Source: an uncultured Candidatus Saccharibacteria bacterium
GTDB taxonomy: Bacteria; Patescibacteriota; Minisyncoccia; Phycocordibacterales; JAACPR01
Assembly (NCBI GenBank): GCA_964507955.1
Contig: CAZDRR010000002.1
Coordinates: 2,665 to 54,851 of the forward strand
DNA length: 52,187 bases
Reading direction: 5' to 3'
Shown: positions 3,672 to 29,629 of the stretch, in pieces
Position numbering within the stretch: the first letter of the stretch is position 1
Layout: the number at the start of each line of letters is the position of its first letter
The notes under the pieces: generated by a model
Database searches by the model: none
Seen by the model: only the letters and a program-made list of their open reading frames with translations
Told to the model about the DNA's origin: nothing
Translations under genes and position numbers: made by a program

Positions 3672-4946
3672 ATGATTCCATACAAACATATACACTTTAT
3701 AGGGATAGGAGGAATTGGAATGTCTGCACTCGCACGGATGTGTCTTTCATATGGAATTAAAGTTTCGGGCTCTGATGGAAATGATTCTCAGATTCTTAAA
3801 GATTTACAATCCGAAGGTGCTGAAATTTTTATCGGACATAACAAAGAACACATTCAAAATTCAGTAGATTGCGTTGTATATACTCTTGCTATTGATGATT
3901 TGAATGAAGAGTTGCAGGAATCTCGCATTAAAAATATACCTCTTTATACATATGCACAGATGCTCGGAGAAGTATCAAAAGATATGTACACGATTGCTGT
4001 TGCAGGAACACATGGAAAAACAACAACAACTGCTATGGTTGCAGATGTGTTTTTAAAAAATAATAAAAAGCCTCATGTAATTGTTGGAAGCCTTCTTGCA
4101 CAGACAGGATCAAACTATATTCATGGAGAAGAGGATATTTTTATAGTTGAAGCATGTGAATATAAAAGATCATTTTTAAATTTAAATCCAAATATTTTAT
4201 TAATTACAAATATTGATGAAGACCACTTGGATTATTATAAAGATCTAAATGACATTCATGATGCATTTAGAACTTTGGTTCAAAAAGTTCCAAAAGAAGG
4301 ATTTATAATTTGTGATAGTGATGATAAAAAAGTAAAGCCTGTTATAAAAGATTGTTTGGCAACAGTAATTGATTATAAAAAATATATTTCAGAAATTCCG
4401 GAACTTACAGTACTTGGTGATCATAATATTCTGAATGCATCGTTAGTGTTGGCACTTTCTAATATACAGAATTTTGATTTTCAAGTTTCAAAACAAGCTC
4501 TCTCTGATTTTAAGGGAACATGGAGGAGGCTTGAATTCAAAAAAGATTTTGGTGCTTTAAAGTTGTATGATGATTATGCACATCATCCGACTGAAATTAA
4601 CGCTGGAATATTAGCATTTAAAAAACGTTTTCCAGATCTTCCACTAATTCTTGTATTTCAACCTCATTTATATTCAAGAACAAAAGAGCATTTTAATGAA
4701 TTTGTAGAAGTGCTTGCAAAAGCAGATATGGTTGTTGTTCTACCTATTTATGCAGCGAGGGAACCTCAAGACGACTCTATTAATTCTCAAATGCTTGTTG
4801 ATGCGTTAAAAGAAAGAGGGGCTCATGCACAATATACTTCAGATTTTGAATCAGTACAAAAAGATATTAGAGAGAATAAAGATAAGCCAGCCGTTGTTGT
4901 TACTGTCGGGGCAGGAGATGTGTATAAGATAATTGATCAATTATAA
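3672..4946 (+). CDS. murC: UDP-N-acetylmuramate--L-alanine ligase
   Basis: HFIGIGGIGMSALA, AGTHGKTTTT, EACEY, DDYAHHPTEI, FQPHLYSRT. Confidence 0.93.
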   Translation: MIPYKHIHFIGIGGIGMSALARMCLSYGIKVSGSDGNDSQILKDLQSEGAEIFIGHNKEHIQNSVDCVVYTLAIDDLNEELQESRIKNIPLYTYAQMLGEVSKDMYTIAVAGTHGKTTTTAMVADVFLKNNKKPHVIVGSLLAQTGSNYIHGEEDIFIVEACEYKRSFLNLNPNILLITNIDEDHLDYYKDLNDIHDAFRTLVQKVPKEGFIICDSDDKKVKPVIKDCLATVIDYKKYISEIPELTVLGDHNILNASLVLALSNIQNFDFQVSKQALSDFKGTWRRLEFKKDFGALKLYDDYAHHPTEINAGILAFKKRFPDLPLILVFQPHLYSRTKEHFNEFVEVLAKADMVVVLPIYAAREPQDDSINSQMLVDALKERGAHAQYTSDFESVQKDIRENKDKPAVVVTVGAGDVYKIIDQL

Positions 4947-6904: not shown

Positions 6905-7651
6905 TTTTCTTAGTATTATTTTTAAAATCCAAAATATATAACTTTGAAAATAATTAGGATATTGTTTTTTATAGTTTTTAATAGTCTTGAAACTATTTAT
7001 TGTTTGCCTTAAATTTTTTGTTTGTGTCTCTCCATCGGGGTTAATCAAATATTCTGTTGTATATTCATCTAAATTTATAAATTTTCCAATAAGACCGAGT
7101 TTTAACCATAATGCGTAATCTTCCAATAAATAATTTTCAACCTTATAAGGATCTTTCTCTAAAACCTCTTTTCTAAATACTACAGTTGAATGAATGAAAG
7201 GATTTTTTCTTAGTATTTTTTTTCTGATTGATATGTCACTGATTGGGTAGTTACTTTTTTTTAGAATTTGACCTTTTTTAAAAAAGGCTTGAGTTCCAAC
7301 AAGAACATAGTCCTTATTGCTTTCTAAGAAATCTATTTGCTTCTCAAGCTTGTCTTCTGTTATCCATATGTCATCTCCATCTATTCTTGCTATATATTCT
7401 CCTTTTGCGATAGAGATACCATTATTGAGGTTTTTTATTAGGCCAAGGTTAGTATTATTTTTTATATAGACTATCCTTGAATCGTTAAAAGAACGAATAA
7501 TATCATCTGTCTTGTCGGATGAACAATCATTAATTATGATAAGTTCAAAATTTTTATATGTTTGTTGTAGTACGCTCTTAATTGAGCGAGTTAATGTTTT
7601 TTCAACATTGAAAGCTGGAAGTATTATGCTTATTTTTATATCTGTATCCAT
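6884..7651 (-). CDS. Glycosyltransferase family 2
   Basis: ISIILPAFN, IINDCSSD, ARIDGDD, HSTVVFRK, EDYALW. Confidence 0.9.
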   Translation of the reverse strand: MDTDIKISIILPAFNVEKTLTRSIKSVLQQTYKNFELIIINDCSSDKTDDIIRSFNDSRIVYIKNNTNLGLIKNLNNGISIAKGEYIARIDGDDIWITEDKLEKQIDFLESNKDYVLVGTQAFFKKGQILKKSNYPISDISIRKKILRKNPFIHSTVVFRKEVLEKDPYKVENYLLEDYALWLKLGLIGKFINLDEYTTEYLINPDGETQTKNLRQTINSFKTIKNYKKQYPNYFQSYIFWILKIILRKLLLNLK

Positions 7652-8418
7652 GTTTTAGGTAAAATATTTAATTCGTCTGATTTTTTGTTTGTAGTCCATT
7701 GTTTGGGTGCTATAACTATTTTACTAGAATTTTGATTAAGCCATGCACCCCACCAAGAAAATGTTGAATTTGCTATTATATTATGTTTACAATATGACAT
7801 AAGTATCAATTCTTCACATTCGTTTAGATTTGGGTTTGAAACATATACTGCAGTATCTACCTTTAAATTTTCTTTTACCCAATTAATATCATCTGAAAAG
7901 ATAAAAAAAACGGGTGAAGATATTAACTTTGTTATTTTTAAAATCGCATATTCATAATATGAAAGATTGCAAGTACCATGATATTTATTTGTTTTAGGAT
8001 TTGCAACATAATCACCACGGCGGATATGAATTGAAACTGAGTTAGAATTACTTTTGATTTGCTCTGCAAGTTCTTGTGCGGCGGGTGAGAGAGGCTCCTT
8101 AAGAGTAATCTCATTACGAATTATCTGCTCTATTGATTTAAAATATTTTTCAGACTGGAATAGATTATAATTTCCAGATAGTTTTGAGTATATTTTCTTA
8201 GAAAGTTTTGTTAATATATTTTCTTTTTTATTTATAAAAATAATAGATTCTGGAATATTAAATTTTTTTAATAAAAAGGGGCGGGAAGTATCTTTTAATA
8301 TTTCTTTAAAAAAAGAAATATTAAAAAGAACTTTTTTGTTTTTTTTAATTAAACTTCTACCATATGCATATTGAAAGAGTTGATTACCAAGCCCTCCTTT
8401 TATGTCTATTGTTTTCAT
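7636..8418 (-). CDS. Alpha-1,2-fucosyltransferase-like (GT11)
   Basis: GGLGNQLFQYA, SIHIRRGDY, IFSDD, IIANSTFSWWGAWL. Confidence 0.9.
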   Translation of the reverse strand: MKTIDIKGGLGNQLFQYAYGRSLIKKNKKVLFNISFFKEILKDTSRPFLLKKFNIPESIIFINKKENILTKLSKKIYSKLSGNYNLFQSEKYFKSIEQIIRNEITLKEPLSPAAQELAEQIKSNSNSVSIHIRRGDYVANPKTNKYHGTCNLSYYEYAILKITKLISSPVFFIFSDDINWVKENLKVDTAVYVSNPNLNECEELILMSYCKHNIIANSTFSWWGAWLNQNSSKIVIAPKQWTTNKKSDELNILPKTWIQI

Positions 8419-15360: not shown

Positions 15361-15399
15361 TTGTGTTCCTTTTTGCTATATGCTAAAAATACTACACAT

Positions 15400-17532
15400 A
15401 TGACAAAACACAATATCTGGAGTATTTCCATTATCGGATTATTATTTGCCTTATTATTTACACCACTTGTGGTTGCAACTAGTTTATATTTTCCATATGT
15501 AACTGGAAAAGTTTTTACTTTTAGAATAATAACAACAATTGCAATGATTTTGTGGCTTATTCTTATTGTTAATAAGCCACAATTTTTGCCTAAAAAATCT
15601 TGCATCATTACTGTTGCTGGACTATTTGTATTATGGCTAGCTATTGCGAACTTTTTTGGTTCAGATATACAAAATTCATTTTTTTCAAATTTTGAGAGAA
15701 TGGAGGGTTGGTTCACACATTTATATTTGTTTGTCTATCTACTTATTCTTTCTTCAGTGCTTCAGTCTGAAAAAATTTGGAGTTGGTTTTTGAATACTTC
15801 TATTGTCGTTGCGAATATTATCGCTTTGAAAGCAACCTTTGACTCACAATTAAGAACACAAGTTTTTTTGGGAAACTCGACATATGTTGCTATTTACATT
15901 CTATTTAATCTTTTCTTTACAGTATTGTTTTTATACAGATTAATTAAAAAGAAAACCAAAGAAGATGCATTAAAATATTTTGGGATTATTTACTATATTT
16001 CTTCAATTATTTTATTCGTGTATGTTATTTTTAGAACTCAAACCAGAGGTACTGTTCTTGCATTAGTTTTCTCTTTTATTCTATTTCTTATTTTATCCGC
16101 GATATCTTATTGGAAAAATAAAAAAGTAAGAATTGTAGCAAGTATACTTTTGATTGTGGCCATTGCTGGTTCTGTGGTGTTTTGGCAAAATCGTGATATT
16201 GCTTTTATTCAAAATAATCCATTACTTGCTAGAATCGCAACAATCTCGGCATCAGAAGGTACTGGTAAGGCTAGACTTGTTAACTGGGGTATTGCAATAG
16301 AGGGTATAAAAGAAAATCCTGTAATGGGTTGGGGACAAGAAAATTATTCTCGTGTTTTTGCACAAAAATATAATCCTAATATGTATGCGCAAGAGCCTTG
16401 GTTTGATAGAACACATAATGCGTTTCTTGATTGGACTATTCAAGGAGGTTTGATTGCATTATTGCTGTATATCTCTCTATTTATTGTGTCTATATATTTA
16501 ATTAAAACTTCTTCTTCATTACATAAGACTGATAAAAATATATTAGTGTCTCTTATTGTAGCGTATTCAATTCATAATATATTTGTATTTGATAATTATT
16601 CGAGTTATTTGATGTTTTTCACTTTGCTTGCGTATATCGTCTATCACTCAAATAAAGGAGAAATCAAAATATTTGACGACAAAAAGAATATTCAAGCCAT
16701 TTCAATTTTTATTGGAATTCTAATTGTTGTTGCTTCTTATTTCACAATTAGCAAACCTCTTTTGGTTGCTAATAATCTTATTGATGCACTTTCTGAAAAA
16801 GATCAAGCTAAGTCTTTAGATATATATGAAAAAATTATTAATAAAAATAGTTTCGGTAATACAGAAGTAGGGATACGACTTATGACTGAGGTACAAAAAT
16901 ATTTTTCTATTGATGATCCAAAAGTTATTCAACGATATGTTGATCTTACTACAAAATTAGGTAATGAATTTGAAAAAACAGACGACGTGAGAAGATTAGA
17001 AACATACGGAGGTTTTCTGATGCAGATAGGGGATGTTCAATCATCAATTCGAGTATTAGAAAAAGCAAAATCCCTTGCACCTAACAGACAGAATAACCTC
17101 TATACTCTTGGGATGACATATATAAATGCGAATAATCTTGATAAAGCAAAAGAAGTTTTTAAACAGGCATATGAGGTTCAAAAGGAAAATGATAGAGCAC
17201 GAACATATTATGGGGCTGTGCTATTGTTGTCTGGAGATAAAAGCGGAAGCGAATTAATAAAAGGATATTCAACAAAAGATGGATTCTTCCTTTCTATATT
17301 TTCTAGATTAAAGCAATATAAAGAAGTAATAAAGATAAGAGAACAAATTAAAAAAGATAATCCAATGGATTATCAAAATCAAGTTTCACTTGCTGTTGCA
17401 TATTATCTAGATAAACAAACTGCAAAAGCAATCTTAGTAATTAAAGATGTACAAAAAGCTGTTCCAGAGTTTAAACAACAAGGAGATTATCTAATAAAAG
17501 AGATGCAAGCAGGGAGGAATATAATTAAATAA
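15400..17532 (+). CDS. O-antigen ligase / O-oligosaccharyltransferase-family membrane protein with C-terminal TPR-like repeats
   Basis: About 12 TMs; TQTRG, ARLVNW...IKENPVMGWG.EN, DRTHNAFLD (Wzy_C motif); helical TPR-like C-terminus. Start moved to ATG 15400. Confidence 0.85.
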   Translation: MTKHNIWSISIIGLLFALLFTPLVVATSLYFPYVTGKVFTFRIITTIAMILWLILIVNKPQFLPKKSCIITVAGLFVLWLAIANFFGSDIQNSFFSNFERMEGWFTHLYLFVYLLILSSVLQSEKIWSWFLNTSIVVANIIALKATFDSQLRTQVFLGNSTYVAIYILFNLFFTVLFLYRLIKKKTKEDALKYFGIIYYISSIILFVYVIFRTQTRGTVLALVFSFILFLILSAISYWKNKKVRIVASILLIVAIAGSVVFWQNRDIAFIQNNPLLARIATISASEGTGKARLVNWGIAIEGIKENPVMGWGQENYSRVFAQKYNPNMYAQEPWFDRTHNAFLDWTIQGGLIALLLYISLFIVSIYLIKTSSSLHKTDKNILVSLIVAYSIHNIFVFDNYSSYLMFFTLLAYIVYHSNKGEIKIFDDKKNIQAISIFIGILIVVASYFTISKPLLVANNLIDALSEKDQAKSLDIYEKIINKNSFGNTEVGIRLMTEVQKYFSIDDPKVIQRYVDLTTKLGNEFEKTDDVRRLETYGGFLMQIGDVQSSIRVLEKAKSLAPNRQNNLYTLGMTYINANNLDKAKEVFKQAYEVQKENDRARTYYGAVLLLSGDKSGSELIKGYSTKDGFFLSIFSRLKQYKEVIKIREQIKKDNPMDYQNQVSLAVAYYLDKQTAKAILVIKDVQKAVPEFKQQGDYLIKEMQAGRNIIK

Positions 17533-17533
17533 C

Positions 17534-17561
17534 TTGCATTATTCTAAAAGTGTGATACTAT
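17534..17561 (+). promoter_or_regulatory. Sigma70-type promoter of small RNA 1
   Basis: TTGCAT(17534)-N16-TGa-extended TACTAT(17556-61); +1 predicted at G17568; overlapping TATAAT at 17559-64 is an alternative. Confidence 0.7.
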
Positions 17562-17567
17562 AATCTT

Positions 17568-17637
17568 GTGAGTGTTGGTATATCCAACTCCACGAATGTC
17601 TGCGAAAGAGCCGCTCTAGAGCGGCTCTTTCGTTTTT
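17568..17637 (+). ncRNA. Candidate small RNA 1 (about 70 nt: 35-nt unique part plus terminator)
   Basis: Promoter upstream, imperfect hairpin GUGAGUGUUGG-UAUAU-CCAACUCCAC, then 30-bp palindrome and U5; no credible ORF. Confidence 0.6.
17603..17637 (+). terminator. Intrinsic terminator, perfect 30-bp palindrome
   Basis: cgaaagagccgctct|agagcggctctttcg followed by ttttt. Confidence 0.85.
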
Positions 17638-17657
17638 AGAAAAATAAATAATTTAAT

Positions 17658-17709
17658 TACAAAAAAATAAAAACTTTCTATTAAAATAGAAAGTTTTTAT
17701 TTTTTTGTA
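17658..17709. terminator. AT-rich perfect 23-bp inverted repeat, likely 3' end signal of RNA 2
   Basis: tacaaaaaaataaaaactttcta-ttaaaa-tagaaagtttttatttttttgta. Confidence 0.65.
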
Positions 17710-17787
17710 TGAACTCTATGAACCGTCGGGTGCCAACTCCAAGTGAATGCCTAAGTGAGTGCAGCCGACGGTTCATAGAACTCACAC
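17707..17787 (-). ncRNA. Candidate hairpin small RNA 2 (81 nt)
   Basis: On the minus strand 23 contiguous pairs including 3 G-U (these are A/C mismatches on plus), C-C mismatch, 3 more pairs, 27-nt loop; the promoter places +1 at the first base of the stem. Confidence 0.7.
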
Positions 17788-17793
17788 AAATAT

Positions 17794-17821
17794 ATTATAT
17801 GTGAATAAATTTTTTTTACAA
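17794..17821 (-). promoter_or_regulatory. Sigma70-type promoter of small RNA 2, with TTATTCACA DnaA-type box in the spacer
   Basis: Minus strand TTGTAA(17821-16)-N16-TATAAT(17799-94); TTATTCACA at 17808-17800. Confidence 0.7.
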
Positions 17822-17937
17822 AAATGTTATTAAAGTATTTTTTAATAAAATTTTATTTTTTAAAAATAAAAAAACAAAATATTTTTTAAAATTATTTTTT
17901 AAAAAATAAAAATAATTTTTTTTAAAAATTTTTTTAG

Positions 17938-17946
17938 TTATCCACA
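17938..17946 (+). promoter_or_regulatory. Perfect DnaA box within an extremely AT-rich tract
   Basis: TTATCCACA; preceding 120 bp (17821-17940) has 4 G/C. Confidence 0.5.
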
Positions 17947-18061
17947 AAATTATTTTTAAAAAAATTGTTTTAATTTTTTTATGAGAGAAAATAATAATAG
18001 GTAATAATTAATTCAAGTCGAAATTATTACTTATAATTATAGGTAATTATTTTTCAAAAAA

Positions 18062-18175
18062 ATGCCAGCAAAAAAGAAAGCAGCAAAAAAAGTTGCTAAG
18101 AAAAAAGTAGCAAAGAAAGCAAAAAAAGCTACAAAAAAAGTTGCTAAGAAAAAAGCAACAAAGAAGCGAAAATAA
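18062..18175 (+). CDS. Histone H1-like Lys/Ala-rich mini-protein (37 aa), missing from ORF track
   Basis: MPAKKKAAKKVAKKKVAKKAKKATKKVAKKKATKKRK*; TATAAT at 18032-37 upstream and terminator just downstream. Confidence 0.85.
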   Translation: MPAKKKAAKKVAKKKVAKKAKKATKKVAKKKATKKRK

Positions 18176-18242: not shown

Positions 18243-20750
18243 ATGAAATTTTTACGTAATATATTTGCTGATCAGAATACAAAAACCCTTAAAAAGTACT
18301 ATACACTCGTGGAGAAAGTAAATGCTTTTGAACCTGATATAGAAAAACTCTCAAATGAAGAACTAAAAGCAAAAACTCTTTATTTTAAGTCTCTTTTAAA
18401 TGAAGGAAAAACACTAGATGATATCTTGCCTGAGGCCTTTGCTGTTGTTCGAGAAGCCTCAAAGAGACTTTCGGGAGAAAGACATTATGATGTACAACTT
18501 ATTGGAGGAATGATTATACATGATGGAAAGATTGCTGAAATGAGAACAGGAGAAGGAAAAACACTTGTTGCAACATTGCCAGCATATCTTAATGCGCTTG
18601 CAGGTAAGGGTGTTCATGTTGTTACTGTTAATGATTATCTCGCAAAGAGAGATGCAGTTTGGATGGGGCAAATTTATGATTTTCTTGGATTGAGTGTAGG
18701 TATTATTAATGGTGATCAATCATATGTATATACATCTCAAAAAGAGAACGAAGAAATTGATGAAGAACGAGACGAAGAGGGTTCATATAATGTTATTGAT
18801 GAATTTTTAAAAAAAGTTTCTCGTGTTGAAGCATATAAAGCAGATATTACATATGGGACAAACAGTCAGTTTGGTTTTGATTATCTAAGAGATAATATTG
18901 AATATCAAAAAGAAAATATTAGACAAATTGAACATGCATTCGCGATTGTTGATGAAATTGATTCTATTTTGATTGATGAAGCGCGAACACCACTTATTAT
19001 TTCTGCACCATCAACCGATCCTGAAAATTTATATAAAGTATTTTCACAAATTGTTTCTACATTTGAAAAAGAAACAGACTATACTGTTGATGAAAAACAT
19101 AAAGCTGTCCATCTTACCGATTCTGGTATAGAAAAAGCTGAGAAAGCTTTGGGAGTTGAAAGTATTTATACAGAAAAAGGAGTTAAATATGTTCACCATC
19201 TTGAAACTGCCGTAAAAGCACATGCCTTATATAGAGACAATAAAGAATATGTTGTACGAGACAATAAAGTAATTATTGTTGATGAGTTTACAGGAAGGCT
19301 TCAACCAGGAAGAAGATGGTCTGATGGTATTCATCAAGCTATTGAAGCAAAAGAAGGTGTTCAAATAGAGCAGGAATCTAAAACTTATGCATCTATTACA
19401 TATCAAAACTACTTTAAGATGTATAAAAAACTTGCAGGTATGACAGGAACAGCGATGACTTCATCTGAAGAATTTTTTAAGGTGTATCTTTTGGATACCG
19501 TTGTTGTTCCAACACATCGACCAATACAAAGAATTGACAGAGATGATCTTATTTTTCAAACAGAAGAGGGTAAATTTAGAGCAATAACAGCAAAAATAAA
19601 AGAATTAAACGCAAAGGGACAGCCTGTACTTATTGGTACTGTGTCTATTGAAAAAAATGAAATGCTTTCTGCATTTTTAACAAAAGAAGGTATCAAACAT
19701 GAAGTGTTAAATGCAAAAAATCATGAAGAAGAAGGAAATATTATTGCACGAGCGGGTCATAAAGGTGCGGTAACAATTGCAACAAACATGGCAGGGCGAG
19801 GAGTTGATATCAAGCTTGGAGGCGTTCCTTTTAATAAGGAAGCTTATGAAGAAGTAAAATCATTAGGAGGAATGTTTGTTATTGGTACAGAACGACATGA
19901 AGCAAGAAGAATTGATAACCAGCTTAGAGGTCGTTCCGGACGACAAGGAGATCCAGGAGAAACACAATTTTATGTTTCAATGACAGATGATCTTATGAGA
20001 ATTTTCTCAACTGATCTTGTAAAAAATATGATGGGAAGACTTGGAATTCCTGAGGATCAACCTATTCAAAATAAAATTATTACACGTTCTCTTGAGAGTG
20101 CACAAGAAAAAATAGAAGGAATTAACTTTGATTCAAGAAAACAACTTCTTTCATACGATAATGTACTTAATACACAACGAGAGTCTATTTATAAGAGAAG
20201 ACGTGCAATATTAATTGGAGAAAATCAAACTCTTGAAGAAGAATTGAAAGAAATAACTTCACTGCAAACAGATATTAATGATACTGTACAAAAAAAGATA
20301 ACTGAAATTGGAAAAGAGAATTTCATGCAATTGTTTAGAAGATTCTTACTTCAAAGTATAGATACATTTTGGATTGATCATCTTGAGGCTATGTCTTATG
20401 TAAGATCTGCAGTTGCACTTAGGGCATATGGACAACGAGACCCGCTTATTGAGTATCAAAAAGAAGGAAGAATTATGTTTGAAAATTTAAAAAATGTAAT
20501 TACAAATAGAGTTGTTGCTCTTATACAAAACATAGATGAACAAGGGTTTAAACGAGAGGAAGAACGAGTTAAGGAGGCTATGAAACAAGCACAAAAATCA
20601 GGAGGGAATGATGTTAATGCTTCTATTTCTTCAAAAGAAGATTATGGTAGAAACGACTTAGTTACTCTTATTAAAGATGGTGTTGAACAAGTTATAAAAT
20701 ATAAGAAGGCACAAGACCTGTTATCATCTGGTTGGGAAATTAAAAAATAA
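18243..20750 (+). CDS. secA: Preprotein translocase ATPase SecA
   Basis: MRTGEGKT, VTVNDYLA, DEIDSILIDEARTPLIIS, ATNMAGRGVDI, RRIDNQLRGRSGRQGDPG. Confidence 0.98.
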   Translation: MKFLRNIFADQNTKTLKKYYTLVEKVNAFEPDIEKLSNEELKAKTLYFKSLLNEGKTLDDILPEAFAVVREASKRLSGERHYDVQLIGGMIIHDGKIAEMRTGEGKTLVATLPAYLNALAGKGVHVVTVNDYLAKRDAVWMGQIYDFLGLSVGIINGDQSYVYTSQKENEEIDEERDEEGSYNVIDEFLKKVSRVEAYKADITYGTNSQFGFDYLRDNIEYQKENIRQIEHAFAIVDEIDSILIDEARTPLIISAPSTDPENLYKVFSQIVSTFEKETDYTVDEKHKAVHLTDSGIEKAEKALGVESIYTEKGVKYVHHLETAVKAHALYRDNKEYVVRDNKVIIVDEFTGRLQPGRRWSDGIHQAIEAKEGVQIEQESKTYASITYQNYFKMYKKLAGMTGTAMTSSEEFFKVYLLDTVVVPTHRPIQRIDRDDLIFQTEEGKFRAITAKIKELNAKGQPVLIGTVSIEKNEMLSAFLTKEGIKHEVLNAKNHEEEGNIIARAGHKGAVTIATNMAGRGVDIKLGGVPFNKEAYEEVKSLGGMFVIGTERHEARRIDNQLRGRSGRQGDPGETQFYVSMTDDLMRIFSTDLVKNMMGRLGIPEDQPIQNKIITRSLESAQEKIEGINFDSRKQLLSYDNVLNTQRESIYKRRRAILIGENQTLEEELKEITSLQTDINDTVQKKITEIGKENFMQLFRRFLLQSIDTFWIDHLEAMSYVRSAVALRAYGQRDPLIEYQKEGRIMFENLKNVITNRVVALIQNIDEQGFKREEERVKEAMKQAQKSGGNDVNASISSKEDYGRNDLVTLIKDGVEQVIKYKKAQDLLSSGWEIKK

Positions 20751-23929: not shown

Positions 23930-24397
23930 ATGAATACAAAGACAAAAGGTTTTACATTGATTGAACTTCTTGTAGTAATCGCTATCATCGGTATTCTTTC
24001 TTCTGTAGTGTTGGCATCGCTCAACAGTGCACGAAACAAAGGTGCGGATGCTGCGGTTAAAGCGAACCTCAATGGTATACGAGCACAAGCAGAGCTTTAT
24101 TACGATACTAATAGTAAATATAATGTTACTTCTGGTACAGCACTCTCAGGTACCGGTTCAGCTGGAGCTGTTTGTGGAGTTACTACTGGTATGTTCTCAG
24201 ATACTAATATCACAAATGCTTTATCACAAGTTGCTGGTCAAATGGCAGGTACTGCAACAATGACATGTACAACAAATACAGCAGGAGATAAATGGGCAGT
24301 TTCTGTAAGTGTTCTTAAGGGAGCTGGAACTTCATGGTGTGTTGACAACTCCGGTTGGTCAAAAGCAGGTACTGCGGCATCAGGTGTTTGCTCTTAG
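23930..24397 (+). CDS. pilA: Type IV major pilin-like protein
   Basis: Class III signal KG|FTLIELLVVIAIIGILSSVVLASL; Ser/Thr/Gly-rich variable domain with 4 Cys, ending in Cys-Ser. Confidence 0.9.
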   Translation: MNTKTKGFTLIELLVVIAIIGILSSVVLASLNSARNKGADAAVKANLNGIRAQAELYYDTNSKYNVTSGTALSGTGSAGAVCGVTTGMFSDTNITNALSQVAGQMAGTATMTCTTNTAGDKWAVSVSVLKGAGTSWCVDNSGWSKAGTAASGVCS

Positions 24398-24420
24398 TAA
24401 ATCTGTTTTTTACATCTAGA

Positions 24421-24486
24421 TTCAAAAAAACCACCGTTAGGTGGTTTTTTTGAATTCAGGTCGCGCCTACGGCGCGACCTGAATTC
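24421..24486. terminator. Two abutting perfect hairpins after pilin
   Basis: ttcaaaaaaaccacc-gtta-ggtggtttttttgaa (15 bp) overlapping gaattcaggtcgcgcc-tac-ggcgcgacctgaattc (16 bp). Confidence 0.85.
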
Positions 24487-24524
24487 TTATGATTTAATAA
24501 AATAAAATGCTATACTTAAAGCAT

Positions 24525-25331
24525 ATGATTGCAGTATTCACACTATATTTTTTTGTTTTAGGAATTATTATCGGTAGTTTTTTGAATGTAGTTATTTTTA
24601 GATATAACACTGGAAGAACATTTGGTGGACGCTCATCCTGTATGTCTTGCAAAACTCAACTCACATGGAAAGAGTTGATTCCTATCTTTTCTTTTTTGTT
24701 TCAAAAGGGAAGATGTAAAACATGTAAAACAAAATTGAGTATTCAATATCTTATTGTTGAACTAATTACAGGCTTACTTTTTGCTGGTAATTTTTTGTTT
24801 ATCTTTGCAAAGACTGATTCCATCTTTCAGTTTGTTGGCACCGTAGGTTTAACAAGCTGTATTATTGCGTGCATGGTTATAATTTTTATATATGATGTAA
24901 AGCATAAAATTATTCCAGATTTATTTTCATTTACTGCTTTTGGACTGAGTATTGTTCTTATTTTGTTTTTATTTCCTTATATTTTAATCCCTAGAATTCT
25001 TGCATCGGGTATATTTTATTTTGTTGTATGGTTTATTTGGAAAGTATCAAAAGGAAGAATGATTGGACTTGGTGACGCAAAATTATTACTTTCAATTGGT
25101 ATGACACTTGGATTTGTGTATGGTTTATCTGCGATTTTTATTGCGGCTTGGTTGGGAGCTGCATATGTCATGTATATTTTGTTGAAAGTACGATTGAGCA
25201 AGACTGCTAAACATATTACAATGAAAACAGAAATCCCATTCGGACCATTTCTTATCTTAGGATTTTTGATTGTGTATTTTACTCATATCGATGTGACTAA
25301 CATAACATTCTTATTAGAAAATTTTTCATGA
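24525..25331 (+). CDS. pilD: Prepilin peptidase (A24)
   Basis: GSFLNVVIFR, RSSCMSC...CKTC Zn site, YDVKHKIIPD, GLGDAKLL, IPFGPFL; start moved to ATG 24525. Confidence 0.93.
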   Translation: MIAVFTLYFFVLGIIIGSFLNVVIFRYNTGRTFGGRSSCMSCKTQLTWKELIPIFSFLFQKGRCKTCKTKLSIQYLIVELITGLLFAGNFLFIFAKTDSIFQFVGTVGLTSCIIACMVIIFIYDVKHKIIPDLFSFTAFGLSIVLILFLFPYILIPRILASGIFYFVVWFIWKVSKGRMIGLGDAKLLLSIGMTLGFVYGLSAIFIAAWLGAAYVMYILLKVRLSKTAKHITMKTEIPFGPFLILGFLIVYFTHIDVTNITFLLENFS

Positions 25332-25915
25332 AATACCATAAACAAAAAGGTTTTACTTTGATTGAGATGGTTGCCGTATTAGGTATCTTTATGGTCCTTA
25401 CTTCTATTGTAATTTTTAATTATTCAAAATTCAGAAGTGATACGATCTTAACCAACATGGCATATGAAGTCGCATTAACTATCCGTGAGGCTCAGATTTA
25501 CGGAGTGTCTGCTCGTAGTTCAGGTGCTTCATTTGAAAATGCGTATGGTATTTTTATTCCTTCATCTTCAGCAACTCAGTATTCTGTATTCTCAGATACG
25601 AGTGGAGATTTAATATTTTCTGGAGACAGTTGTTTATTAAGTGGTGGTGATAATTGTACTACTACATACAATTTTCAAAATAATATAAAGATTTCTCAAT
25701 TAGATGTAAAAATCGGAAGTAGCTGTCAACCAGCAAGTAGTTTAAGCATCTCATTTAAAAGACCAAATCCCGAGCCAATAATTAGAAGAAATTCCGGAAA
25801 TGAGGCTATAAGTCTCGCACAAATAAAAGTCTCAACTGCAGAAGGTGTTAGTAGATATGTAGTAATATATGGTAATGGGCAAGTTGCTGTTCTTAATGAA
25901 TCACAATGCAATTAG
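25328..25915 (+). CDS. Type IV minor pilin (FimT/GspH-like)
   Basis: KG|FTLIEMVAVLGIFMVL. Confidence 0.85.
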   Translation: MKYHKQKGFTLIEMVAVLGIFMVLTSIVIFNYSKFRSDTILTNMAYEVALTIREAQIYGVSARSSGASFENAYGIFIPSSSATQYSVFSDTSGDLIFSGDSCLLSGGDNCTTTYNFQNNIKISQLDVKIGSSCQPASSLSISFKRPNPEPIIRRNSGNEAISLAQIKVSTAEGVSRYVVIYGNGQVAVLNESQCN

Positions 25916-26490
25916 AAAAAAATAAAAAAAGAATAGCAGGATTTACACTTATTGAACTTCTTGTTTCGATTGCACTTTTTTCTATTGTACTTACAGTTAC
26001 TCTTGGTTCTATTATGACTATTGCTGATTCAAATAAGAAGGCACGATCTCTTATGTCTGTTACTAACAATCTTAATTTCGCTATTGATAGTATGGTTAGA
26101 AGTTTTAAATCTGGAGAAATTGATGTTAATCCTGTATTTGATTTTTCTGGTGGTGATAATAATTGTTTTTCAACAAAGGAAATTGATTATGGTACTAATT
26201 CTGAATTTGCTAATACTCGACGTCCAGTAGAGTATTGTTGGATTGAAGATAATGGTGTTGGTGATGCAAAAAAGGGAAAAATTGTAAAAATTGTTAATGG
26301 AGATACAATCGATCTTACTTCTCCTGATGTTGATGTTGATTATCTTAGATTTGAAGCGCCTACTCCTGTACAAGGAAGTATTCAACCAATGTTATCAATT
26401 ATGATTGAAGGTAAAGTAAAAATTTCTGAAAAAGTTTCTTCACAATTTTCTATTCAAACTTCGGTCTCACAAAGAAGGTTAAATATTTAA
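25906..26490 (+). CDS. Type IV minor pilin (PilW/GspJ-like)
   Basis: AG|FTLIELLVSIALFSIVL; C-terminal QTSVSQR. Confidence 0.85.
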   Translation: MQLEKNKKRIAGFTLIELLVSIALFSIVLTVTLGSIMTIADSNKKARSLMSVTNNLNFAIDSMVRSFKSGEIDVNPVFDFSGGDNNCFSTKEIDYGTNSEFANTRRPVEYCWIEDNGVGDAKKGKIVKIVNGDTIDLTSPDVDVDYLRFEAPTPVQGSIQPMLSIMIEGKVKISEKVSSQFSIQTSVSQRRLNI

Positions 26491-26493
26491 TAT

Positions 26494-27060
26494 ATGAATA
26501 ATTTCAATAATAAAAAAATATCTAACAAAAAAGGGTTTACTATTATAGAGACTCTTGTTGCGATATTTATTTTACTTGTTTCTACTACTGGACCTCTTAC
26601 ATTTGCACAAAGTGGTCTTCGTTCATCATTTCTTGCACGAGATCAAATTACGGCTTTTTATATAGCGCAAGACTCTATTGAAACATTAAAAAATATAAGA
26701 GATAACACTTCACTCTATAATCGAAATCAATCAAGTTCAACAAAAGTTCCTTGGCTTTTTGATTTTGGTGTATGTAGTCCAAGTGTGTTAGGTGAAACTG
26801 TTACCTGTAACTTTGATGATGCACAAGCACAATCTTGCGGTGATAGTGACTGTACTACACCTTTATATTTTGATTCTGAAACAAAGAAATTTAGTATTAC
26901 ATCAAACTCAAGAACAGTTCCTTCAAAGTACATTAGAACAATTTATGTCACAGAATTAATTCAAGATAGGGAGGCTCAAGTTATAGTAAAAGTTGAATGG
27001 GATTCAAATTTTTTTGCTACAAAGAGAATTATTATTCAAGAGAATATTTATAATATATAA
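26494..27060 (+). CDS. Type IV minor pilin (PilV/GspI-like)
   Basis: KG|FTIIETLVAIFILL; AFYIAQDSIETLKNIRD. Confidence 0.85.
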   Translation: MNNFNNKKISNKKGFTIIETLVAIFILLVSTTGPLTFAQSGLRSSFLARDQITAFYIAQDSIETLKNIRDNTSLYNRNQSSSTKVPWLFDFGVCSPSVLGETVTCNFDDAQAQSCGDSDCTTPLYFDSETKKFSITSNSRTVPSKYIRTIYVTELIQDREAQVIVKVEWDSNFFATKRIIIQENIYNI

Positions 27061-27062
27061 GC

Positions 27063-29629
<2,567 letters not shown>

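Follow-up and report, generated by a model that had tools for sequence, protein, structure and literature searches.

The region between the genes for an O-antigen-ligase-like protein and SecA on contig CAZDRR010000002.1 raises the question of why three short sequence blocks should recur there in circularly permuted order. The stretch analysed covers 52,187 nt of this contig (hereafter, the window; G+C about 31%). In an initial annotation made from the letters alone, the two sets of blocks had been assigned to a pair of small RNAs, RNA 1 from the plus strand and RNA 2 from the minus strand. After comparison of the locus with its relatives, the best explanation, and one that we regard as probable, is that these are two independent small-RNA genes whose products form a dedicated base-pairing couple. 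In kind, the system is a base-pairing small RNA (sRNA) with a structured partner, and its topology is unusual. The pair appears to represent a widespread RNA family of Paceibacteria that is without described counterpart and is tied to murB.

Three permuted blocks in one intergenic region

The first copy, in plus coordinates, consists of block A (GTGAGTGT, 17568–75), block C (CCAACTCCA, 17584–92) and block B (GAATGTCTG, 17594–602). The second copy, also in plus coordinates, runs C′ (17733–41), B′ (GAATGCCTA, 17745–53) and A′ (GTGAGTGC, 17755–62). All six blocks are found in the sequence where they had been placed initially. When the two copies are read from opposite strands, 26 nt are complementary in three blocks, and the positions at which the copies differ (positions 6 and 9 of B, position 8 of A) become U·G or G·U wobbles, as the initial annotation had noted. 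There is no overlap between the two genes, which are about 150 nt apart. RNA 2 is complementary to 26 of the 35 core nucleotides of RNA 1.

Within the window, the match can be compared with chance in several ways. When the 35-nt core of RNA 1 was shuffled 100,000 times and helices of at least 7 bp with the RNA 2 loop were counted, only 2 shuffles attained 26 paired nucleotides. When the 52-kb window was scanned on both strands for partners of RNA 1, the RNA 2 loop came first, the antisense of RNA 1 itself aside, at -34.7 kcal/mol against a background of -12.3 ± 3.9 kcal/mol; the next site reaches -30.9 kcal/mol, so that the margin is small. Single blocks occur elsewhere in the window at chance frequency. 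Such window-only figures are unconvincing by themselves, since the feature was chosen after the sequence had been read, and it is the comparative data that decide.

A sequence identical to block B (GAATGTCTG) is present at 3718–3726 on the plus strand, inside a Mur ligase gene (3672–4946), where it encodes the conserved G-M-S of an N-terminal motif. As a candidate target of RNA 1 this site was rejected, being an occurrence at chance frequency that codes for the GMS motif of the Mur ligase.

The module in related loci

Contigs of close relatives were fetched through homologues of the ligase protein, and further loci were sought by scanning genome contigs with the ligase protein and metagenome contigs with the exact DNA pattern. 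The exact-pattern scan of metagenome contigs yielded two loci only (L087 and L088; the prefix L denotes a numbered locus), and the protein-anchored scan of genome contigs was far more productive. The relatives are recorded in the databases as Candidatus Paceibacteria, Parcubacteria or Patescibacteria. The module lies directly 3′ of the ligase stop codon in every locus at which the ligase is 42–85% identical (L001–L010, L013 and L087–L092), and both elements, with the block order unchanged, are present in 14 related loci. Among the close relatives the intergenic DNA outside the module is not conserved, and the spacing from element to element ranges from about 90 to 240 nt.

The locus L087 comes from a 1-kb metagenome contig in which (positions 1–219) the stem arms of RNA 2 are mismatched. 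The 5′ arm and the 3′ arm resemble different lineages, which suggests a chimeric assembly.

The pair had been thought to lie outside the known RNA families, and this view stands. A search of the whole window with Rfam 15 at the gathering score returned tRNA only, and at the same score there were zero matches in 12 distant loci. At E ≤ 10, the pair region gave only sub-threshold, terminator-driven matches, including models of the Enterococcus par region. A possible likeness of the conserved 27-mer to the 5′ part of 23S rRNA plays no role in the argument. A literature search for sRNAs in Patescibacteria or Parcubacteria, or for sRNA control of murB, gave nothing relevant, and no description of a regulatory RNA system in Paceibacteria or other bacteria of the candidate phyla radiation (CPR) was retrieved.

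RNA 1 on the plus strand

The left neighbour of the pair is the ligase gene (15361–17532, plus strand; stop codon 17530–32), which encodes a Wzy_C/TPR ‘O-antigen-ligase-like’ protein of 723 aa. The putative promoter of RNA 1 (17534–17561, plus strand) starts 2 nt past this stop codon and consists of the -35 box TTGCAT (17534–39), a 16-nt spacer and the extended -10 box TGaTACTAT (TG at 17553–54, hexamer at 17556–61). Its position and the pattern CTTGC-N16/17-TGnTAYnnT-N6 are kept in 13 close loci, directly before GTGAGTG, and the distant loci carry TTGACA/TTGACT-17-TATAAT-like boxes that are always 6–7 nt before GTGAGTG. A consensus scan omits the promoter because its -35 box matches at only three of six positions. 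Thus, of the two promoters predicted initially, that of RNA 2 is found by a simple scan, but that of RNA 1 is not listed and rests on conservation across species. Conservation starts exactly at the predicted +1, 6–7 nt past the -10 box, in agreement with the earlier placement of block A at the start of RNA 1.

RNA 1 is predicted to be about 70 nt long (17568–17637, plus strand), with a 5′ hairpin (17568–17593), block B (17594–17602), a terminator stem-loop (17602–17633) and a U-run extending to 17637. The predicted fold has an energy of -34.9 kcal/mol (z = -7.5) and leaves GAAUGUCU, which is block B, unpaired between the 5′ hairpin and the terminator. In an alignment of 13 sequences, compensatory change is seen at 8 of 21 pairs, three of them in the 5′ hairpin; the terminator hairpin, with its U-run, covaries as well. 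Within RNA 1, block A pairs with block C (GUGaGuGUUGG / CCAACuCCAC) through three compensatory pairs, and the top of the hairpin is compensatory in three lineages (UUGG/CCAA, UCGG/CCGA, UUGA/UCAA and GUGUUA/UAACAC). Because A and C are complementary inside RNA 1, the 8 nt between them form the top of this hairpin. They had been described as a linker bridging the RNA 2 stem; they do sit opposite that stem in the complex proposed below, but they are no plain linker.

RNA 2 on the minus strand

The predicted promoter of RNA 2 (17794–17821, minus strand) has the -35 box TTGTAA (17821–16), a 16-nt spacer and the -10 box TATAAT (17799–94), and matches the consensus at 10 of 12 positions. It puts the +1 near 17787, 1–2 nt before the base of a 5′-terminal hairpin (17708–17786, minus strand) with a covarying 22-bp stem and a conserved apex that holds A′, B′ and C′. 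A TTGnnn-16/17-TATAAT element is found at a fixed distance on the minus side of RNA 2 in all 14 close loci, and a TATAAT-like box stands 5–12 nt before the hairpin in the distant ones.

Downstream of the hairpin is a perfect palindrome with 25-nt arms (17658–17709; arms 17658–82 and 17685–709), which belongs to neither strand in particular and sits between an A-run and a T-run. Its arms are 100% complementary, and it folds within the minus-strand transcript. The palindrome appears to be a bidirectional intrinsic terminator that provides the 3′ end of RNA 2. Its sequence is not conserved, while a hairpin is found at the same place in relatives; in L010, L013 and L092 the hairpin between the genes has a T-run on the minus strand only. 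Taken together, the promoter, hairpin and terminator would delimit a whole RNA 2 of about 130 nt, from about 17787 to about 17655 on the minus strand. For both RNAs, we infer promoter and terminator function, and transcription itself, from the conserved positions of these elements.

The alignment of RNA 2 is gapless over 14 sequences and comprises the 22-bp stem, an inner helix ACUC/GAGU and a 17-nt loop. Over the whole structure 97.2% of the alignment cells are paired, two-sided changes occur at 17 of 28 pairs, and none of 500 shuffles equals this. The stem also discriminates between the strands, since 381 of 392 cells are canonical when it is read from the minus strand (32 of them G·U) versus 355 from the plus strand (6 G·U). 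This asymmetry, the promoter on the minus side and the T-runs confined to the minus strand lead us to place RNA 2 on the minus strand, with a predicted start 1–2 nt before the hairpin. The same assignment had been made initially, with RNA 1 on the plus strand, and it also agrees with the sense of the distant homologues, which is that of the murB mRNA.

Could RNA 2 be a message? Among 11 close loci it has no conserved reading frame, with differences in frame, start and length, and two loci are without an open reading frame (ORF) of at least 12 codons. None of the ORFs in the RNA 2 of the close loci is hydrophobic in the manner of Fst. A plus-strand ORF was also considered and discarded, as it stops after 8 codons in L002. 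These results bear on the idea of a type I toxin-antitoxin system of the par/Fst kind, in which RNA 2 would encode a toxic peptide and RNA 1 would act as the antitoxin. The architecture does match that of par of the plasmid pAD1, down to a bidirectional terminator shared by the two genes in L005, L008, L009 and L087. However, with no conserved or Fst-like hydrophobic ORF in RNA 2, with stem arms that evolve by compensatory base changes and not by the rules of codons, and with murB following the hairpin in distant relatives, this idea is largely refuted and we regard it as highly improbable.

Distant homologues and two gene layouts

Covariance models were built from the window’s clade alone, R1 for RNA 2 and R2 for RNA 1. 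With these, both RNAs were found in about 25 Paceibacteria loci at which the ligase is only 30–36% identical. Homologues of RNA 1 were detected by R2 in about 30 distant loci, and all of them start with GTGAG. These distant RNAs begin with GUGAG[U/A/C]G, followed by a hairpin whose length varies greatly; next come a CU(U)CCAA-like block, then a variable one, and the terminator last. The apex of distant RNA 2 homologues reads G[C/U][A/G]CUCAC, A, a variable block and then UUGGAGCU and NGCACCCG. Across 25 distant homologues two-sided changes are seen at all 22 pairs of the RNA 2 stem, in an alignment fitted to the model that therefore favours the structure.

In most of the distant loci RNA 1 and RNA 2 share a strand, and RNA 2 has a separate TATAAT box; in L083 and L086 RNA 2 is on the opposite strand. 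The convergent layout of the window is one of two layouts.

In L083, an inverted partial duplicate consisting of the C′ block and the upper stem (7628–7650 and 7683–7705) adjoins the inverted RNA 2. The duplicate may have been left behind when recombination flipped the RNA 2 gene.

R2 gave a second match within the window, at 24397–24480, which involves only the terminator half of the model. This was rejected as a second RNA 1, being just a pair of terminators. The segment holds two back-to-back terminator hairpins after a pilin-like gene (23930–24397), and the first of them (AAAAAAACCACCGTTAGGTGGTTTTTTT) is much like the terminators of RNA 1 in relatives.

Covariation between the two RNAs

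If the two RNAs pair with one another, their blocks should change together between lineages, and the initial annotation had named covariation as the means of checking this. Block B differs between lineages and is complementary to B′ within each genome. Examples of B and B′ are GAAUGUCUG and UAGGCAUUC in the window, CAAAGUAAAUAUC and GAUAUUUACUUUG in L073, CAAAGUAAAAUGUC and GACAUUUUACUUUG in L017, AAAUGAAUAUCU and AGAUAUUCAUUU in L075, and GAAAAUCUA and UAGAUUUUC in L037. Duplex energies were calculated for every RNA 1 against every B′ over 23 non-redundant lineages, with the conserved cores of A and C excluded. The mean for cognate duplexes was -9.33 kcal/mol versus -5.36 kcal/mol for non-cognate ones (sd 2.49), and none of 20,000 permutations reached the observed cognate sum. 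The cognate RNA 1 ranked first in 10 lineages and among the top five in 22 of the 23.

The other two helices change in the same manner. The A:A′ helix has two-sided changes at three of its eight pairs, with 96.9% of cells paired, and its variants include UGC/GCA, UAC/GUA (four loci), CGU/ACG (L043) and UGU/ACA. C and C′ vary in step, from CCAAC/GUUGG in the window to UUAGC/GCUAG in L017 and L073, with a C-G to U-A change in L009. The outcome of the check is thus positive for all three blocks. As complementarity is kept across two separate genes even though their relative orientation has flipped, pairing between RNA 1 and RNA 2 is the simplest explanation that the sequences offer.

The same data speak to a reading of the blocks at the level of DNA, as protein-binding sites, as part of an origin of replication, or as a diverged duplication whose copies do not interact. 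A perfect DnaA-box-like TTATCCACA and a very AT-rich repeat tract are indeed present 150 nt to the right, and tandem duplication could produce a permuted order. The G·U asymmetry, the flanking promoters and terminators and the onset of conservation at the exact +1 indicate RNAs, however; the complementary blocks covary; relative orientation flips between lineages while RNA sense and complementarity are kept; and the GC skew keeps its sign at the locus. A DNA-level origin of the pattern is accordingly disfavoured, and we give it very little credence.

Association of RNA 2 with murB

The order ligase, murB, secA is common in Paceibacteria. In 12 loci (L028, L037, L038, L047, L049, L050, L065, L067, L071, L073, L077 and L084) the RNA 2 hairpin forms the very 5′ terminus of the predicted murB transcript. 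The murB ATG in these loci lies between -8 and +15 nt from the end of the RNA 2 match, and in L050 and L084 it falls within the 3′ arm of the hairpin. The downstream gene was identified as MurB by Pfam, and no Shine-Dalgarno sequence is evident at murB in the 12 loci. Because the hairpin forms the 5′ end of the murB mRNA over the start codon in so many members, the most likely ancestral role of RNA 1 would be the post-transcriptional control of murB and hence of peptidoglycan precursor synthesis.

A different arrangement is found in the window’s clade and in L016, L017, L043, L044, L055, L056, L062, L075 and L082, where a terminator or a U-run comes after RNA 2 and the site lacks murB. The RNA 2 of the window, encoded on the strand opposite to RNA 1 and followed by its terminator, is not a murB leader, and murB is absent from the 52-kb window and from the loci of close relatives. 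The window does carry a MurC-like ligase (3672–4946) and a transglycosylase, so peptidoglycan synthesis is present. It appears that in this clade murB has gone from the site, and that an inverted RNA 2 has acquired a terminator and continues to be strongly selected. In this setting RNA 2 is most likely a free partner of RNA 1, as a decoy or antagonist, or else the complex itself is the working unit. The description of the pair as a dedicated two-RNA module therefore needs some qualification: covariation supports the pairing, but the homology of RNA 2 to the 5′ hairpin of the murB mRNA points to an ancestral relation of sRNA and target.

A free-standing RNA 2 that covers 26 of 35 nt of RNA 1 also invites the interpretation that RNA 1 regulates several mRNAs as a general sRNA and that RNA 2, in the window’s clade, is a sponge whose pairing with RNA 1 serves only to titrate it. 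RNA 1 is built like a typical trans-acting sRNA, with a 5′ hairpin, a single-stranded seed and a terminator, and sRNA sponges such as RosA, SroC and 3′ETS-leuZ are well known. However, the seed-like block B drifts along with B′, which would be unexpected if other conserved targets had to match, and no convincing second target was found in the 52-kb window, where the next-best duplexes lie inside coding regions. We therefore consider a general sRNA with a sponge improbable, though not to the degree of the toxin-antitoxin and DNA-level interpretations.

A model for the complex

The order of elements in RNA 1 is 5′-A, hairpin, C, B, terminator, and the apex of RNA 2 reads 5′-A′, B′, C′-3′. Read antiparallel around the closed loop of RNA 2, the sequence of elements is A′, (stem), C′, B′, which matches RNA 1 if its hairpin is put in the position of the stem. 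With the order A-C-B, RNA 1 would thus run antiparallel around the whole RNA 2 loop. The first contact is probably between the single-stranded block B and the apical loop B′, after which A would pair with A′ and C with C′. In the window’s clade, A and C would have to be freed from the RNA 1 hairpin and A′ and C′ from the short helix of RNA 2, so that pairing would amount to strand exchange. The near-invariance of A and C fits a fourfold constraint, in which A pairs with both C and A′, and C also pairs with C′.

In the modelled complex, the RNA 2 stem, A:A′, the RNA 1 hairpin and C:C′ would meet in a four-way junction. A straight rod of 26 bp could not close a loop of 35 nt, and bends would be needed. 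Candidate bend points are the bulge between C:C′ and B:B′ (ACU in RNA 2; C or AUAA in RNA 1) and the 1–2 nt between A′ and B′. With bends at these points, the three intermolecular helices could conceivably close as a triangle. The order of pairing, the shape of the junction and any regulatory outcome are inferences.

Binding at the apex could be conveyed to murB through RNase III cleavage, through remodelling of the junction, or through removal of the hairpin to leave a nearly leaderless mRNA. More speculatively, the pair may be a so far undescribed bimolecular RNA switch of CPR bacteria, in which an sRNA threads around the loop of a 5′ hairpin through three permuted helices and a four-way junction and so gates the expression or processing of the murB mRNA. 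In some lineages, that of the window among them, the hairpin would then have been detached from murB, and the two RNAs would survive as an autonomous device with an output of its own. This specific proposal is tentative, and we hold it with clearly less conviction than the existence of the couple itself.

A number of observations weigh against a dedicated couple. Blocks A, B and C are almost invariant inside the window’s clade, and the covariation signal consequently comes from comparison of distant lineages. A U-to-A change in block C of L009 makes for a better RNA 1 hairpin at the cost of an A·A mismatch in C:C′; L002 and L008 lose one or two C:C′ pairs, and L017 and L073 have one A:A′ mismatch each. 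The U·G wobble in B:B′ is fixed across the clade and has not drifted towards Watson-Crick pairing. Since each RNA has a fold of its own to give up, the net gain from pairing is modest, at about -5.5 kcal/mol for B:B′ alone and about -7 to -11 kcal/mol for the three helices once both RNAs have been opened, in a calculation that ignores topology. RNA 1 is without cognate-specific complementarity to the stem arms of RNA 2 or to the start region of murB. Finally, many Paceibacteria have the ligase directly before murB, leaving no room for the pair; about ten loci have a ligase-murB spacer of only 20–120 nt and no RNA pair, and the module is therefore not essential for murB.

The conservation pattern could also be that of a stable bimolecular structured RNA, a scaffold or ribonucleoprotein core for a protein rather than a regulator with its target or sponge, in which A/A′ and C/C′ would make protein or tertiary contacts and B:B′ would serve as a clamp for which pairing alone matters. 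A/A′ (GUGAGUG / CACUCAC) and C′ (UUGGAGCU) are almost invariant throughout the family while B drifts with compensation, RNA 2 persists as a free-standing and strongly conserved RNA in several lineages that have no adjacent murB, and the complex as predicted forms a compact four-way junction. The fourfold pairing constraint can, however, also account for the invariance of A and C, and the murB start codon at the base of the hairpin in 12 lineages points to regulation. Besides the ligase, murB and secA, no candidate protein gene was found to be linked to the pair. A scaffold is thus an unlikely alternative to the base-pairing couple, if slightly less so than a general sRNA and its sponge.

Neighbouring features

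On the right, the pair is followed by a small Lys/Ala-rich ORF (18062–18175, plus strand) and then by secA (18243–20750). The ORF encodes 37 aa (MPAKKKAAKKVAKK...) and is made of 48-nt repeats, and a version of 41–50 aa is located directly upstream of secA in relatives. No Pfam match was obtained for the ORF at 18062–18175. Its product looks like a histone-like or other small basic protein that binds nucleic acids. The leader of about 100 nt that precedes it (17965–18061) is nearly identical in L002, L004, L005 and L006 despite diverged flanks, and contains the nested inverted repeats AATAATAGGTAATAATT, AATTATTACTTATAATT and ATAGGTAATTATT. This leader may be a cis-regulatory RNA or an operator.

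The perfect DnaA-box-like 9-mer TTATCCACA (17938–17946, plus strand) occurs as a single copy inside the AT-rich repeat tract at 17800–17990. The same 9-mer is found in the same orientation 250–430 nt upstream of secA in 21 of 44 Paceibacteria loci with secA in view, very distant ones included. A replication origin was considered here on account of the one 9-mer and the AT-rich tract, yet the GC skew does not reverse, and the 9-mer is therefore probably a regulatory site rather than oriC. Further along, a gene cluster at 23930–27629 encodes proteins with N-terminal methylation (type IV pilin-like) motifs and a prepilin peptidase (24507–25331).

Implications

The CPR hosts are mostly uncultured and have very small genomes, and the pair offers a concrete, testable case of RNA-RNA regulation among them, backed by covariation inside each RNA and between the two. 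The link to murB ties it to the synthesis of peptidoglycan precursors. Since one and the same hairpin leads an mRNA in certain lineages but stands as a free RNA elsewhere, the family may illustrate a route by which decoy RNAs originate. The circularly permuted pairing in three blocks, which would let an sRNA encircle a hairpin loop, is of relevance to RNA structure and to the design of synthetic riboregulators.

Comparison with known systems

The closest architecture to the layout of the window is that of par of pAD1 (Fst/Ldr, RNA I/RNA II), which combines convergent promoters with direct repeats read in opposing senses, a bidirectional terminator and several separate pairing segments (PMC7472228). 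The window’s clade likewise has predicted convergent promoters, and the direct DNA repeats A, B and C are read oppositely to give complementary RNA segments that would pair separately. As to the terminator, the window has two hairpins, that of RNA 1 and the palindrome at 17658–17709, whereas L005, L008, L009 and L087 have a single shared hairpin. Unlike par/Fst, the pair described here is without a toxin reading frame, its blocks, in circularly permuted order, are all contained in a single hairpin loop, and the partner RNA is a murB leader in relatives. Because most members of the family have tandem genes, the convergent, par-like layout is incidental.

Among antisense systems, CopA-CopT, RNA I-RNA II of ColE1, Sok-hok and IS10 RNA-OUT/RNA-IN begin with recognition at an exposed loop or 5′ end, from which strand exchange spreads. 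The CopA-CopT complex ends in a four-helix junction, and in IS10 one RNA uses its 5′ end to bind the loop of its partner, much as block A at the 5′ end of RNA 1 would pair with the RNA 2 loop. In antisense pairs of this kind, the two RNAs are encoded in cis by the two strands of one DNA segment and match throughout. The present RNAs, in contrast, come from separate genes and share three short blocks in permuted order, and RNA 1 would have to encircle the loop.

Trans-acting sRNAs that target structured 5′ leaders include DsrA, RprA and ArcZ on rpoS, GlmZ on glmS, which serves the supply of amino sugars and cell-wall precursors, and OxyS on fhlA, which pairs through two-site kissing. RNA 1 resembles these in having its own predicted promoter and Rho-independent terminator and in its predicted pairing with a leader hairpin that hides a translation start. 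It differs in that it would pair with the apex only and not with the arm that covers the start, and the ‘leader’ of the window leads no gene. Since the seed and its target drift in concert, the pair looks exclusive.

Sponges and decoys are represented by RosA for RoxS and FsrA, SroC for GcvB, 3′ETS-leuZ for RyhB and RybB, and GlmY for GlmZ. The free-standing RNA 2, whose conserved part is complementary to most of RNA 1, is similar to these. In contrast to them, RNA 2 has its own deeply conserved 22-bp stem, and it appears to derive from an mRNA leader or to have given rise to one. The family is distinct from its known kin in being trans-encoded, in its permuted three-part pairing, in its apparent restriction to a single partner, and in that this partner is a leader or a free RNA according to lineage.

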